In this document: positions 939 through 1,978 of the stretch, piece by piece
Numbering within the stretch: the stretch's first letter is position 1
How the letters are laid out: each line of letters starts with the position of its first letter
NCBI RefSeq assembly: GCF_003334255.1
Contig: NZ_QOWU01000142.1
Source of the DNA: Escherichia coli
GTDB lineage: Bacteria; Pseudomonadota; Gammaproteobacteria; Enterobacterales; Enterobacteriaceae
Reading direction: 5' to 3' (one strand)
DNA length: 1,978 nucleotides
The notes under the pieces: generated by a model
What the model was told of the DNA's origin: nothing
Database searches by the model: none
The model's input: the letters and a program-made list of their open reading frames with translations, nothing else
Program-made: the position numbers and the translations under genes

Positions 939-1010
939 CGGTTGTCTCTGCTGGCGCAGCAGGTGCCAGTTGTTCAGGCTGGCGTGCGAATTGTAAACCA
1001 GAATGCCAGG

Positions 1011-1037
1011 AAAAAACAAAACCCGCCGAAGCGGGTT
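1011..1037 (-). terminator. Rho-independent terminator at the 3' end of the hok mRNA
   Basis: On the minus strand: a 7-bp stem AACCCGC / GCGGGTT (1037-1031 pairs with 1026-1020) with a UUCG tetraloop (1030-1027), followed by UUGUUUUUU (1019-1011). Confidence 0.8.
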
Positions 1038-1041
1038 AAGT

Positions 1042-1056
1042 GCGGGTGCGTTGAGG
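1042..1056 (-). promoter_or_regulatory. fbi-like (fold-back inhibition) 3' element of the hok mRNA
   Basis: The minus-strand RNA CCUCAACGCACCCGC is complementary, with one bulged C, to the predicted 5' end of the hok mRNA, GCGGGUGCUUGAGG (1432-1419). This is the arrangement known for plasmid R1 hok mRNA, where the 3' fbi pairs with the 5' tac. Confidence 0.65.
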
Positions 1057-1105
1057 ATGCCTGACTCATCAGAGGTGGCGAGGGATTTCTCCCCCGCCAG
1101 GTCTC

Positions 1106-1261
1106 TTACTCCTCAGGTTCGTAAGCTGTGAAGACAGTGACCTCCGTCTGGCCGGTTCGGATTCGTACCTCGCAGAGGTCTTTCCTCGTTACCAGTGCCG
1201 TCACAATGACGGTAATACAGATGACGATCAGGGCGACTAACATCGCCTTTTGCTGCTTCAT
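1106..1261 (-). CDS. hok: Hok/Gef-family type I toxin, 51 aa
   Basis: MKQQKAMLVALIVICITVIVTALVTRKDLCEVRIRTGQTEVTVFTAYEPEE. It has a short basic N-terminus, one transmembrane helix and the conserved TRKxLCExR...GxxEVxxFxAYE tail. From memory it is nearly identical to E. coli HokD/RelF and close to HokC/Gef. ATG at 1261-1259 is preceded by AAGGAG (1276-1271) with a 9-nt spacer. The stop is TAA at 1108-1106. Confidence 0.93.
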   Translation of the reverse strand: MKQQKAMLVALIVICITVIVTALVTRKDLCEVRIRTGQTEVTVFTAYEPEE

Positions 1262-1318
1262 AGCCTGCTTCTCCTTGCCTTTCGGCGTGTAAGAGGCTAA
1301 CCTACATGTGACTAGCAT
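1106..1318 (-). CDS. mok: Mok-like leader reading frame (70 aa), an in-frame N-terminal extension of hok through which hok translation is coupled
   Basis: ATG at 1318-1316 (MLVTCRLASYTPKGKEKQA followed by the Hok sequence), with GAGG (1330-1327) 8 nt upstream. The in-frame layout matches my memory of chromosomal mokC/hokC. Both the start codon and the Shine-Dalgarno site lie inside the region covered by the antisense Sok-like RNA. Confidence 0.65.
   Translation of the reverse strand: MLVTCRLASYTPKGKEKQAMKQQKAMLVALIVICITVIVTALVTRKDLCEVRIRTGQTEVTVFTAYEPEE
1275..1303 (+). promoter_or_regulatory. Sigma-70 promoter of the Sok-like antisense RNA
   Basis: TTGCCT (1275-1280), a 17-nt spacer, then TAACCT (1298-1303). 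The block CTCCTTGC...GTAAGAGGCTAACCT..ATGTGACTAGCAT runs parallel to the R1 sok promoter and start region as I remember it (CTCCTTGCGC...GTAAGAGGCTATCCTGATGTGGACTAGACAT). The -35 overlaps the hok Shine-Dalgarno site on the other strand. Confidence 0.65.
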
Positions 1319-1381
1319 GAAATTGGCCTCAGATTAATGTTAAGCGTCCTGCAAGACGCATAATGTTAACTGGGGCTTTTC
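1308..1381 (+). ncRNA. sok: Sok-like antisense RNA (type I antitoxin), about 70 nt
   Basis: The start is predicted 5-7 nt downstream of the -10. A single-stranded 5' tail (about 1308-1325) is followed by a long imperfect hairpin (1326-1376) and a UUUU tail. The RNA is fully complementary to the hok mRNA leader, including the mok start codon (1316-1318) and the mok Shine-Dalgarno site (1327-1330). Confidence 0.75.
1326..1381 (+). terminator. Sok stem-loop and intrinsic terminator
   Basis: GCCTCAG (1326-1332) pairs with CTGGGGC (1370-1376). The inner stem TTAATGTTAAGCGTC (1334-1348) pairs with GACGCATAATGTTAA (1355-1369), with one A.A mismatch and two G.U pairs. The loop is CTGCAA, and TTTTCT follows (1377-1382). 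Confidence 0.7.
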
Positions 1382-1382
1382 T

Positions 1383-1418
1383 CTGTCTGCCTTACGGTGG
1401 CATGCCCGAGGCAGACAG
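1383..1418 (-). other. 5' leader hairpin of the hok mRNA
   Basis: A perfect 9-bp inverted repeat, CTGTCTGCC (1383-1391) with GGCAGACAG (1410-1418), around an 18-nt loop containing the self-complementary GGCATGCC. It corresponds to the GGCUxUCUGCC...GGCAGAxAG leader hairpin I recall from R1 hok mRNA. Confidence 0.6.
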
Positions 1419-1432
1419 CCTCAAGCACCCGC
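1419..1432 (-). promoter_or_regulatory. tac-like 5'-terminal element of the hok mRNA
   Basis: The minus-strand RNA GCGGGUGCUUGAGG lies at the predicted 5' end. It resembles the R1 hok 5' end (GGCGCUUGAGG, from memory) and is complementary to 1042-1056. Confidence 0.65.
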
Positions 1433-1436
1433 AGCA

Positions 1437-1464
1437 ATTCTACTTAACTCTCGCTTTACCGCAA
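1437..1464 (-). promoter_or_regulatory. Candidate sigma-70 promoter of the hok/mok mRNA
   Basis: On the minus strand: TTGCGG (1464-1459), a 16-nt spacer, then TAGAAT (1442-1437). The predicted start near 1430-1432 coincides with the tac-like element. Together with the terminator this gives an mRNA of about 420 nt, in the size range known for hok mRNAs. Confidence 0.55.
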
Positions 1465-1476
1465 ACCGTTTTTACC

Positions 1477-1498
1477 CGATATGGGAATTCCCATATCG
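1477..1498. repeat. 22-bp perfect palindrome CGATATGGGAATTCCCATATCG, function unknown
   Basis: Exact self-complementarity, checked base by base and centred on GAATTC. It lies 12 bp upstream of the hok -35 and 8 bp downstream of the 34-aa ORF stop. The confidence value refers to the repeat existing, not to any function. Confidence 0.95.
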
Positions 1499-1506
1499 TA
1501 ATGAAT

Positions 1507-1611
1507 TCAGTTCCCTAGTCGATCCATCAAAAACACAACCAGGCAGTAAACACCCACAACAGCAATAACAGCCAGCGCACCTTCCATTGCCAGTGAGATA
1601 TCATCCGACAC
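1507..1611 (-). CDS. Candidate 34-aa single-pass membrane micro-protein
   Basis: GTG at 1611-1609 to TGA at 1509-1507: (M)SDDISLAMEGALAVIAVVGVYCLVVFLMDRLGN. AAGGAGGG (1622-1615) lies upstream; the AGGAGG core ends 4 nt before the GTG. The peptide has an acidic N-terminus followed by an 18-residue hydrophobic helix. This frame has a strong first-position G bias (GCG CTG GCT GTT ATT GCT GTT GTG GGT GTT), which favours it over the overlapping ATG frame. Confidence 0.5.
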   Translation of the reverse strand: MSDDISLAMEGALAVIAVVGVYCLVVFLMDRLGN

Positions 1612-1646: not shown

Positions 1647-1730
1647 TTACCCACACCGACAAATAACATATACTAAAAAAGCGATAGCCATAGCAACGCC
1701 TGTAATTGCAAATGCTTCAGGCCAGATCAT
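1647..1730 (-). CDS. Candidate 27-aa hydrophobic micro-protein, translationally coupled to the DUF551 gene
   Basis: ATG at 1730-1728 overlaps the TGA stop (1729-1727) of the upstream gene as ATGA. GGAGG (1742-1738) lies 7 nt upstream. The peptide is MIWPEAFAITGVAMAIAFLVYVICRCG, with a TAA stop at 1649-1647, and is essentially one transmembrane helix. Confidence 0.55.
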   Translation of the reverse strand: MIWPEAFAITGVAMAIAFLVYVICRCG

Positions 1731-1978
1731 TGGCGCACCTCCTGCGGCGGTTCTGGTAACGGCATCCAGTCGGTTACATTGCGGCTCTGTGTTTCGAAAA
1801 ATTCATCACCATTACGGACTACATCAAAAAACTCACCGTCTCGATATTGCGCATAAAGAACGAATGCGCCATCACATAAAATAATTACGTGCTGACCATC
1901 ATCCGGCATTCGCTCACTACAGCTTATCCAACCATCCGGAGTTACCGGAGAGTTGCCCGATAGTGCATTCTGCTCCAG
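1727..1978 (-). CDS. DUF551-like phage protein, C-terminal 83 codons; the 5' end probably lies beyond the right edge
   Basis: The frame is open from 1978 to TGA at 1729-1727: LEQNALSGNSPVTPDGWISCSERMPDDGQHVIILCDGAFVLYAQYRDGEFFDVVRNGDEFFETQSRNVTDWMPLPEPPQEVRQ. The pattern GWISxxERMP...V(I/L)(I/L)...VTxWMPLPEPP is what I recall for DUF551. The domain begins upstream of the ATG (1909-1907) used by the ORF track, and that ATG has no good Shine-Dalgarno site, so the real start is probably outside the window. Confidence 0.8.
   Translation of the reverse strand: MEQNALSGNSPVTPDGWISCSERMPDDGQHVIILCDGAFVLYAQYRDGEFFDVVRNGDEFFETQSRNVTDWMPLPEPPQEVRQ

Follow-up and report, generated by a model that had tools for sequence, protein, structure and literature searches.

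Why should a perfect palindrome of 22 base pairs (bp) lie just upstream of the promoter of a toxin gene? The question is raised by a stretch of 1,978 nucleotides (nt) of Escherichia coli DNA (NCBI RefSeq assembly GCF_003334255.1, contig NZ_QOWU01000142.1; this whole stretch is called the window below), in which the sequence CGATATGGGAATTCCCATATCG occupies positions 1477-1498, between a group of small minus-strand open reading frames (ORFs) and the hok gene of a hok/sok cassette. A first-pass annotation of these letters had suggested that the palindrome does not look like a canonical terminator and that it could instead be an operator for a dimeric DNA-binding protein or mark a recombination joint between phage modules. 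The analysis described here leads to a different origin: the palindrome is probably an orphaned fragment of a KilA-N-domain (BstA-like) gene, still carrying the dyad that this family conserves within its coding sequence, and probably a passenger where it now lies. Such a fragment, made up of the dyad and some 15 nt of the flank 3' to it, would run antisense to the early-right (PR) operon and would have stayed behind where a small-ORF module (ORF34) meets the hok/sok cassette of a lambdoid prophage. The perfect symmetry would have been inherited and would not have evolved for hok.

The palindrome itself is much as it was first described. An inverted-repeat search, a match scan and sequence shuffles confirm that CGATATGGGAATTCCCATATCG is a perfect, spacer-less inverted repeat with 11-nt arms (11+11), self-complementary over all 22 bp and present on either strand. 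There is no second match to it with three or fewer mismatches elsewhere in the window, and none of 200 shuffles gives a match. Folding of the RNA of both strands returns the 9-bp stem (five G-C pairs) and 4-nt AAUU loop that had been proposed, with free energies of -13.9 kcal/mol for the plus strand (z-score -3.8) and -14.5 kcal/mol for the minus strand (z-score -3.5). The T-run at 1469-1473 does precede the dyad on the plus strand and does read as an A-run after it on the minus strand. The placement of the palindrome close to and upstream of the hok -35 element also stands, but the gap between them is 11 bases (1466-1476) rather than the 12 that had been counted.

Could such a palindrome be a chance product without a history? 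Nothing speaks for this except that short palindromes are common. Of 3000 dinucleotide-preserving shuffles of the window, only 3 contain any perfect 11+11 palindrome (analytically, about 5e-4 is expected), so that a chance occurrence has p≈0.001. Furthermore, the identical 22-mer is found again in hundreds of loci, and similarity in its flank links it to KilA-N genes. Rarity in shuffles, recurrence and the KilA-N link together refute a chance origin, to which next to no probability can be given.

The source of the palindrome is indicated by the places in which it recurs. The 18-nt core of the dyad is present at 120 or more loci in a scan of viral contigs: in about 74 of these it lies upstream of hok, in 27 it lies inside KilA-N ORFs, and about 20 are other orphans. 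The products of the dyad-bearing ORFs read ...FL.eLs.DMGIPISeLiq..kGG..qGTWvHP and are KilA-N domain proteins (Pfam PF04383, E-values of 1e-19 to 1e-26), most of which also carry the BstA C-terminal domain (PADLOC BstA, E-values of 1e-14 to 1e-21). Both strands of the dyad read as a C followed by the codons GAT, ATG, GGA, ATT, CCC, ATA and TCG, which encode D-M-G-I-P-I-S. A second frame, I-W-E-F-P-Y, was considered for the copies away from hok and rejected, being mostly closed; D-M-G-I-P-I-S is the correct one. All 74 sampled KilA-N genes that carry the motif have 0-2 mismatches to the window's dyad, which is identical at 22/22 positions to the allele in the KilA-N locus L254 and in the phage ON470590. 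In the window, the D-M-G-I-P-I-S frame is bounded by stop codons on both strands and is consequently not an intact KilA-N ORF.

Similarity to KilA-N genes continues beyond the dyad, but on one side only. The plus-strand 3' flank (1499-1513, plus strand), TAATGAATTCAGTTC, can be compared with GAATTAATTCAATCA, which encodes E-L-I-Q-S in intact genes; it is decayed, contains two stop codons and overlaps the stop codon of ORF34 on the minus strand. Against the best of 13 KilA-N genes, the window flank is identical at 10/15 positions (P≈0.01) or, over a longer stretch, at 13/27 (P≈0.04). The corresponding values in sister classes of hok loci, designated here by letters, are 11/15 for class B (P≈0.002) and 19/27 for classes D and E (P<2e-4), and the single locus L285 reaches 20/27 (P<2e-4). 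The flank on the hok side has no KilA-N similarity (P 0.2-0.4); the hok-linked copies thus keep KilA-N-like sequence on the plus-strand 3' side only. By tblastn, the window holds 7-13 KilA-N codons at most and the hok-adjacent maximum among hok-linked loci is 13-16 codons; a full KilA-N gene next to hok was sought and not found. The arrangement in other phages is nevertheless informative. In the annotated Rac-type phage ON470590, the intact KilA-N gene lies in the interval from the replication genes to Q and on the other strand from PR, in the same place and orientation as the window relic. The KilA-N gene of PhiR5_2 and of Proteus phage V3 lies just downstream of cI, and bstA of phage BTP1 is likewise located just downstream of cI (PMC8585504). 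No BstA-family gene is annotated in the window's own prophage.

Within intact KilA-N genes, the dyad is under selection at the nucleotide level. Enterobacterial KilA-N genes were sampled by codon-degenerate patterns, which gave 12-13 representatives with 60-86% nt identity. At the other invariant residues of these genes the synonymous sites are scrambled, with four codons in use for Gly, six for Arg, four for Pro and four for Ser. The codons of the dyad, in contrast, are nearly fixed: GAT, CCC (Pro) and the rare ATA (Ile) are each present in 13/13 genes, and GGA and ATT in 11/13. Even the codon before the dyad, whose residue varies among S, R, A and T, ends in C in 12 of the 13 genes, so that the outer C-G pair is kept. 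Mean pairwise codon identity at invariant residues is 0.88 within the dyad versus 0.40 elsewhere (matched permutation P<5e-5).

More distant homologues hold a dyad at the same codons but build it from other bases and other residues. A podovirus homologue that reads T-T-G-I-P-I-V has TTAACTACGGGAATTCCCATAGTTAA; the homologue of Planktothrix phage PaV-LD (D-I-G-K-T-I-S) has CGATATCG-GGAAGA-CGATATCG; that of a Bacteroides LoVEphage (D-M-H-I-P-I-S) has GCCGATATG...CATATCGGC; and that of Synechococcus phage S-SRP02 (S-A-G-I-P-A-D) has GTCAGCCGG-AATC-CCGGCCGAC. KilA-N genes of giant-virus metagenome-assembled genomes, some of them fused to other domains, were also seen (L011 11257-11278 and L042 547-568). 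These read N-M-G-I-P-I-L, CAATATGGGAATTCCCATATTG, a dyad that differs in that position 2 and its partner 21 have changed from G-C to A-T and that is otherwise the same.

This pattern was quantified with 55 unique motifs taken from 120 homologues found by a profile search. Residues 1 and 7 of the motif pair as D/E-S, S-D, V-T, A-A and I-I, residues 2 and 6 as M/I-I, A-A, V-T and T-V, and residues 3 and 5 as G-P and R-R, so that the covariation of residues follows a codon-complement code (D↔S, V↔T, A↔A, L↔R, G↔P). For pairs 1-7 and 2-6, none of 5000 column shuffles attains the observed compatibility with this code, and for pair 3-5 the P is 0.01-0.02. In the DNA of 15 diverse genes, 91% of the cells are paired and the covariation score is 0.71, versus 0.22 in shuffles. 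Nine of these 15 sequences had been chosen by the motif, and the test was therefore repeated with 52 unique sequences picked by protein similarity alone. In this set, 78% of the cells are paired versus 55% in shuffles, double changes are present at all nine pairs (137 double-change cells versus 58 expected), and the covariation score is 0.62, compared with 0.24 in shuffles, none of 500 of which reach it, and 0.10-0.20 in slid controls. Pairs that involve only third codon positions are Watson-Crick in 103/156 cells versus 48.8 expected (P<5e-5), a result that speaks for the nucleotide level because selection on the protein cannot see third positions. In some sequences the G-I-P core is itself replaced and the pairing kept, as in S-P-Q-I-C-G-D, S-L-P-N-G-G-D and L-R swaps. 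The covariation extends over all nine stem pairs and takes in phages of enterobacteria, of Bacteroides and of cyanobacteria. At least seven of the nine pairs are kept in 33/52 sequences and four or fewer in 14/52, which indicates that the dyad has been lost in some lineages.

A contact within the protein, of the kind made across a beta-hairpin, was considered as the cause of the residue covariation and rejected. In a confident structure model (predicted local distance difference test score of 88.6), D-M ends a long helix, G-I-P forms a turn and I-S starts a short helix, with a beta-hairpin coming next; the best solved matches of the model are the APSES domains of Mbp1 and PCG2. The D-M-G-I-P-I-S segment is thus predicted to be the corner of a winged helix-turn-helix and not a beta-hairpin, so that positions 1/7 and 2/6 would not be brought next to each other in that way. 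Furthermore, the third-position pairs covary too. In the intact genes the dyad belongs to an ancient element, in which arms of 9 bp flank a centre of 4 nt; it is kept by compensatory substitutions at the nucleotide level, and these constrain the amino-acid pairs that are open to the KilA-N protein. Two side observations concern the loci of these genes. Of nine metagenomic or genomic loci fetched at random, two (L385 1-197 and L389 1-193) have a transposase gene of the IS1595 family directly upstream of the KilA-N gene, and at L386 119-831 and on the contig of P0018 the KilA-N and BstA_C (PF26567) domains are on two adjacent ORFs and are not fused.

Is the element read as DNA or as RNA? Among the retained dyads, the non-Watson-Crick cells are 7 G·T, 6 A·C and 17 other, which is a small sample. 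An attempt to assign a strand from wobble pairs failed, since 7 G·T versus 6 A·C is not significant and the two hok-linked events could share a strand by chance. The lack of a wobble excess and of a strand bias, unlike what is usual for a hairpin of single-stranded RNA, leans toward an element that may act at the DNA level, either as a symmetric site or as an extruded hairpin or cruciform, although the sample behind this is small. The dyad is present in single copy in four phage genomes that carry the KilA-N gene, which argues against a regulator with several operators; a multi-site operator was likewise rejected, the dyad being single-copy in five phage or prophage genomes and its half-sites not enriched. 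Literature searches on KilA-N or BstA together with palindrome, inverted repeat or hairpin found nothing relevant, and Rfam contains no family that matches the dyad. No description having been found, the intragenic dyad of the parent genes is apparently undescribed so far.

What, then, might the orphan do upstream of hok? Like a Rho-independent terminator, the dyad is a stable stem-loop a few nt past a stop codon; unlike one, it has no 3' U-tract on either strand, the hairpin being followed by GGGUAAAAACGG on the minus strand and by UAAUGAAUUCAG on the plus strand, and it is undetected by a terminator consensus scan of the window, which gives no match at the dyad. The initial judgement that it is not a canonical intrinsic terminator is therefore upheld. 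Another possibility is that the dyad works as a hairpin in the PR transcript, at the 3' end of the segment that covers ORF34, where it could be a barrier to 3'-exonucleases, a processing site or a weak pause and thus insulate the hok promoter and the folded 5' end of hok mRNA from read-through. This role appears improbable. It would fit the stability of the minus-strand stem (the -14.5 kcal/mol given above) and the position of the dyad in classes A, C, D and E, 7-16 nt past the point at which the upstream PR-sense ORF stops, and the presence of true terminators at the equivalent place in locus L127 and in class B makes it plausible that insulating hok is useful. However, there is no U-tract, GGGUAAAAAC coming after the hairpin; class B retains the dyad despite its canonical terminator about 80 nt upstream; and both the dyad and a terminator are missing from many hok loci. 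In addition, the mismatch spectrum of the whole family shows no G·U enrichment, and the symmetry is accounted for by inheritance from the KilA-N gene. As to the terminators themselves, canonical intrinsic ones were seen just upstream of the hok promoter in some loci, namely AAAAACCCCGGATTGATGGTCCGGGGTTTTT in L127 and CCACGTCCTTCAGGACGTGGATTCTTTTT in class B (L127 and L176 were inspected), which suggests that insulation of hok from read-through is sometimes selected.

An operator for hok can be judged from a set of loci collected independently of the dyad. Eighty hok loci were picked by their Hok protein (at least 94% amino-acid identity), one of which was too short to score. The dyad is perfect in 24 of the 79 scorable loci and diverged in one; in the other 54 there is nothing similar, and these 54 have the same promoter. 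The dyad is thus dispensable at hok. The distance from the dyad to the hok +1 also varies, being either 46 nt or 64-65 nt, depending on the class. The first-pass annotation had proposed a search of the prophage for further copies and half-sites; in the 42-kb prophage there is no other copy with three or fewer mismatches, and the number of half-sites is not significant, with 6 found and 2.4 expected (6 of 100 shuffles reach 6). On this evidence, the operator that the same annotation had offered is not supported. In its specific form, the dyad would be bound by a dimeric phage or host regulator that acts on the hok promoter from about -57.5. The perfect symmetry of the dyad and its location 11 nt upstream of the -35 element are what such a site would call for, and the shift of 18-19 nt in other locus classes is about two helical turns. 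Set against this are the missing copies and unenriched half-sites in the prophage and the 54/79 close loci that share the promoter without the dyad. Furthermore, hok-linked copies of the L292 type tolerate a 1-nt central deletion, and the identical 22-mer is found elsewhere within an unrelated coding sequence. The dyad-less loci, the variable spacing and the lack of a second copy therefore argue against a dedicated hok operator, which would seem, from the sequences compared, to be a very remote prospect.

The alternative that the first-pass annotation had raised, a recombination joint, has fared better. Alignment of related loci, which it had recommended, shows that homology to other phages and hok loci ends at the hok-side edge of the dyad or 0-17 nt past the other edge; the dyad is located at mosaic joints. 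In the window type, ORF27 and ORF34 are followed by TGAATTCATTA, the dyad and then GGGTAAAAACGG-TTTGCGG. The L123 type has ORF27-TAA-AAACGG-TTTGCGG, without ORF34 and without the dyad, and the L178 type has an ORF34 homologue followed by TGATTGATTTCAT-ATTGGCG, without the dyad and without the A-run. Classes B and C have the dyad with other DNA on its far side, and classes D and E have about 18-19 additional bases between the dyad and the hok promoter.

The block that comes and goes is bounded by a short repeat. Two copies of an 11-nt direct repeat, CG(T/C)TTTTACCC, exactly flank the ORF34 and dyad block of 175 nt: the proximal copy (1467-1477; minus strand GGGTAAAAACG) belongs to the hok promoter module, and the distal copy (1642-1652; minus strand GGGTAAAAGCG) takes in the stop codon of ORF27. 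L123-type hok loci lack the whole 175-nt block and have one repeat copy left. The presence and absence of ORF34 and the dyad would fit a deletion between the two repeat copies and would equally fit an insertion accompanied by a duplication. On the minus strand the A-run occupies -43 to -39 relative to hok. It is kept in these dyad-less loci and therefore belongs to the hok promoter module; from its position, it may be a proximal UP-element-like subsite.

Lambdoid phage genomes are known for mosaic boundaries and gene remnants (Juhala/Hendrix-type mosaicism). The locus resembles these in that homology breaks at or beside the dyad, in that a short, decayed coding fragment lies between two modules, and in that a short direct repeat surrounds the block that is present or absent. 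It differs in that the remnant is non-random, its centre being a sub-element on which selection acts strongly at the nucleotide level in the parent family, and in that this remnant recurs as a precisely trimmed unit.

Several observations weigh against reading the orphan purely as a passenger and should be set out together. None of the loci found has an intact KilA-N gene directly beside hok, so that the capture event is undocumented. The flank similarity is modest in the class of the window (P 0.01-0.04) and absent in class C. The exact 22-mer occurs as a precisely trimmed orphan in at least eight unrelated contexts, and two of the trimmed orphans sit near a second palindrome with a GGGAATTCCC core; random gene decay would seldom yield such units. 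Finally, the D/E-type loci, sampled without reference to the dyad, contain two diverged versions of it, CGATGCGGGACTTCCCACATCG in L285 and CAATGTGGGAA-TCCCACATCG in the L292 type (eight loci). These share a compensatory A5G/T18C pair, and their remaining changes are central, including the 1-nt deletion, or are transitions. Random mutants keep the hairpin as well as these do in only 0.15% (P 0.0015) and 0.7% (P 0.007) of cases, two tests that are not independent because both variants share the one compensatory pair. The diverged copies hint that constraint has persisted or else that KilA-N alleles have converted patches of them; compensatory maintenance in the hok-linked orphans is suggestive only. 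Within class A, at shallow divergence, one substitution at the centre of the dyad was seen, along with one deletion of 1 nt in a prophage that is decaying. No special protection of the dyad was seen there, and such ordinary hits neither prove nor exclude selection.

The individual orphans are varied. One locus (L072 13856-13920) has the exact 22-mer and, 20 nt off, a palindrome with other arms and the GGGAATTCCC core, ACGGGAATTCCCGT; another (L004 5711-5732 and about 6020-6067) has the exact 22-mer with AAAAACGGGAATTCCCGTTTTT and GGTCGGAATCCCGAC. At L015 6877-6898 a direct repeat of some 20 nt, GGCAACCAATGCGCGCA, stands on either side of the dyad, and at L031 10234-10255 the dyad precedes an AAGGAGG ribosome-binding site by 3 nt. 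At L120 3621-3642 the core is the tip of a longer hairpin that has a T-run after it and resembles a true terminator. In E. coli RM14723 (L391 151-249), an IS481 transposase gene adjoins the locus, and the dyad is one base short (CCCATA-CG); the copy is decaying. The genes that flank the other orphans have no common theme. Among 5426 E. coli genomes, the orphan context is present in 671, with up to five copies per genome, and the L254-type KilA-N allele in 137. A tight linkage of orphan and intact KilA-N gene was thus rejected; it is also not seen at the level of the locus, as only 1 of 93 orphan loci has a KilA-N gene in the stretch that was examined.

Taken together, these results make a passenger relic the most likely identity of the hok-linked copy, which is possibly a retained orphan site. 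The dyad at hok would mainly be a passenger, and neither a terminator of the upstream operon nor a dedicated hok operator. Any activity that it has kept there would be the family's own cis activity, most likely at the DNA level, as a symmetric site or an extruded hairpin.

Such an activity has a precedent within the BstA family. The aba element is a short DNA element within BstA's own locus that suppresses BstA, and each BstA variant has a cognate element (PMC8585504). In BTP1, aba is 63 bp long, consisting of 29 bp upstream of bstA and the first 34 bp of the gene, and has terminal CCCGCC direct repeats (PMC8585504). It acts as DNA, not as RNA or peptide, and is genetically inseparable from the gene (PMC8585504). 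The dyad of the parent genes, as distinct from the window copy, resembles aba in being a short element inside the locus of a KilA-N-type member of the BstA family, and both elements differ between variants. Unlike the dyad, aba is defined by its terminal repeats and not by a palindrome; the dyad lies at codons ~58-65 of the canonical KilA-N domain, and BTP1 BstA matches the dyad-bearing proteins in the C-terminal domain only. The dyad cannot be equated with the published aba, from which it differs in both sequence and position (PMC8585504).

A further comparison is with binding sites that lie inside the gene of their own reader protein, as do the iterons of the lambda origin in gene O and parS in parB/spo0J. 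The dyad shares with these that it is a dyad-symmetric element kept at the nucleotide level in coding sequence, co-inherited with the gene and varying by phage lineage. It differs from them in that their binding is demonstrated and their sites are usually multiple, whereas the dyad is a single candidate site in each genome, and in that the dyad encodes the turn of the domain's own helix-turn-helix.

These comparisons lead to a contrasting hypothesis, in which the dyad is a functional orphan site whose copy at hok is retained to titrate or blind the KilA-N/BstA-like proteins of resident or co-resident prophages. Such a site would protect a phage that lacks an abortive infection (Abi) gene of its own. 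The dyad-bearing genes do belong to the BstA family, and BstA is suppressed by a short, variant-specific DNA element in its own locus (PMC8585504). The lack of a strand bias or wobble excess fits a DNA-level element, there is one copy per phage genome, and the arms are hypervariable between lineages and could encode specificity. Furthermore, orphans trimmed to the 22-mer recur in unrelated contexts, two of them with tandem variants; structure is preserved in the diverged hok-linked copies; and the orphan is as widespread as the genome counts above indicate. On the other side, aba of BTP1 has another sequence and another place, its 63 bp and CCCGCC repeats lying over the start codon. The same 22-mer is common to many diverged enterobacterial alleles, unlike a variant-specific antidote; the dyad is also found in KilA-N genes with other C-terminal domains; and a KilA-N gene is near only the one orphan locus of 93. 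A retained, functional copy at hok is therefore considered unlikely. The wider proposal, that the intragenic dyad is an aba-like, DNA-level self-recognition site whose covarying arms set specificity and that the orphans are decoy or immunity sites against BstA-like abortive infection, is likewise unlikely.

The surroundings of the dyad are those of a lambdoid prophage. The window is 100% identical to the prophage next to yccA in E. coli JE86-ST05, and every gene in it is on the minus strand, in the early-right (PR) operon, for which the order is replication genes, ea22/DUF551, ORF27, ORF34, dyad, hok, DUF968, rusA and Q. ORF34 (1507-1611, minus strand; RefSeq WP_001278450) encodes a small hydrophobic protein, and its stop codon precedes the dyad by 8 nt in the PR direction; homologues with conservative substitutions are present in L178-type and L117-type loci. 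ORF27 (1647-1730, minus strand) encodes a small hydrophobic peptide that ends in ...CRCG*, and its homologue directly abuts the hok -35 element in L123-type loci. Both ORFs are conserved across locus classes with conservative substitutions and probably encode real small membrane peptides. The upstream micro-ORFs of the first-pass annotation are real, being annotated or conserved ORFs. The DUF551 gene upstream of them (window 1727-1960, minus strand; L001 21727-22635) is annotated as two partial pseudogene pieces and is intact in EDL933.

On the other side of the dyad, the hok mRNA leader and Sok target region (1256-1430, minus strand) match Rfam RF01794 with 117.6 bits (E-value 1.2e-27). The model spans 1430-1256 on the minus strand, and the 5' end of hok mRNA is therefore placed near 1430. 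The hok promoter (1437-1465, minus strand) has the -35 element TTTGCG (1465-1460), a 17-nt spacer and the -10 element TAGAAT (1442-1437); it was assigned by eye, anchored on the Rfam 5' end and checked in the hok-locus alignment, and a strict consensus promoter scan does not call it. The dyad thereby spans -47 to -68 of hok, with its centre at about -57.5, and lies 46 nt upstream of the mRNA 5' end. Although it is a direct neighbour of hok/sok (RF01794), the dyad starts at 1477, outside the RNA model, whose match ends at 1430; it is missing from most hok loci and is not a component of the toxin-antitoxin system. The hok coding sequence (annotated hokD) is at 1106-1261 on the minus strand, with the overlapping mok frame at 1106-1318, and the transcript ends at an intrinsic terminator (1010-1037, minus strand) with the stem AACCCGC-TTCG-GCGGGTT and a T-run. 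A weak isrK-like Rfam match at window positions 1016-1097 of the minus strand (27.1 bits, E-value 0.0024, gathering score 50) overlaps this terminator stem at 1037-1020.

For the hok locus, then, the answer is deflationary: the palindrome would be a relic at a place where two modules meet, and the toxin gene would have no hidden regulator in it. The interest shifts to the parent element, a 22-nt dyad within the gene of a DNA-binding domain that belongs to the very widespread KilA-N/APSES superfamily, including BstA-type abortive-infection proteins. Since part of the covariation in the KilA-N domain is driven by nucleic acid, caution is needed with methods that rely on protein coevolution or predict contacts. 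The intragenic dyad also offers a concrete and mutable candidate for the cis site of KilA-N/BstA-type proteins, and it suggests a class of prophage orphan sites that are candidate anti-defence decoys. If that were true, orphan copies such as the one upstream of hok would let phages without an Abi gene escape BstA-like abortive infection.

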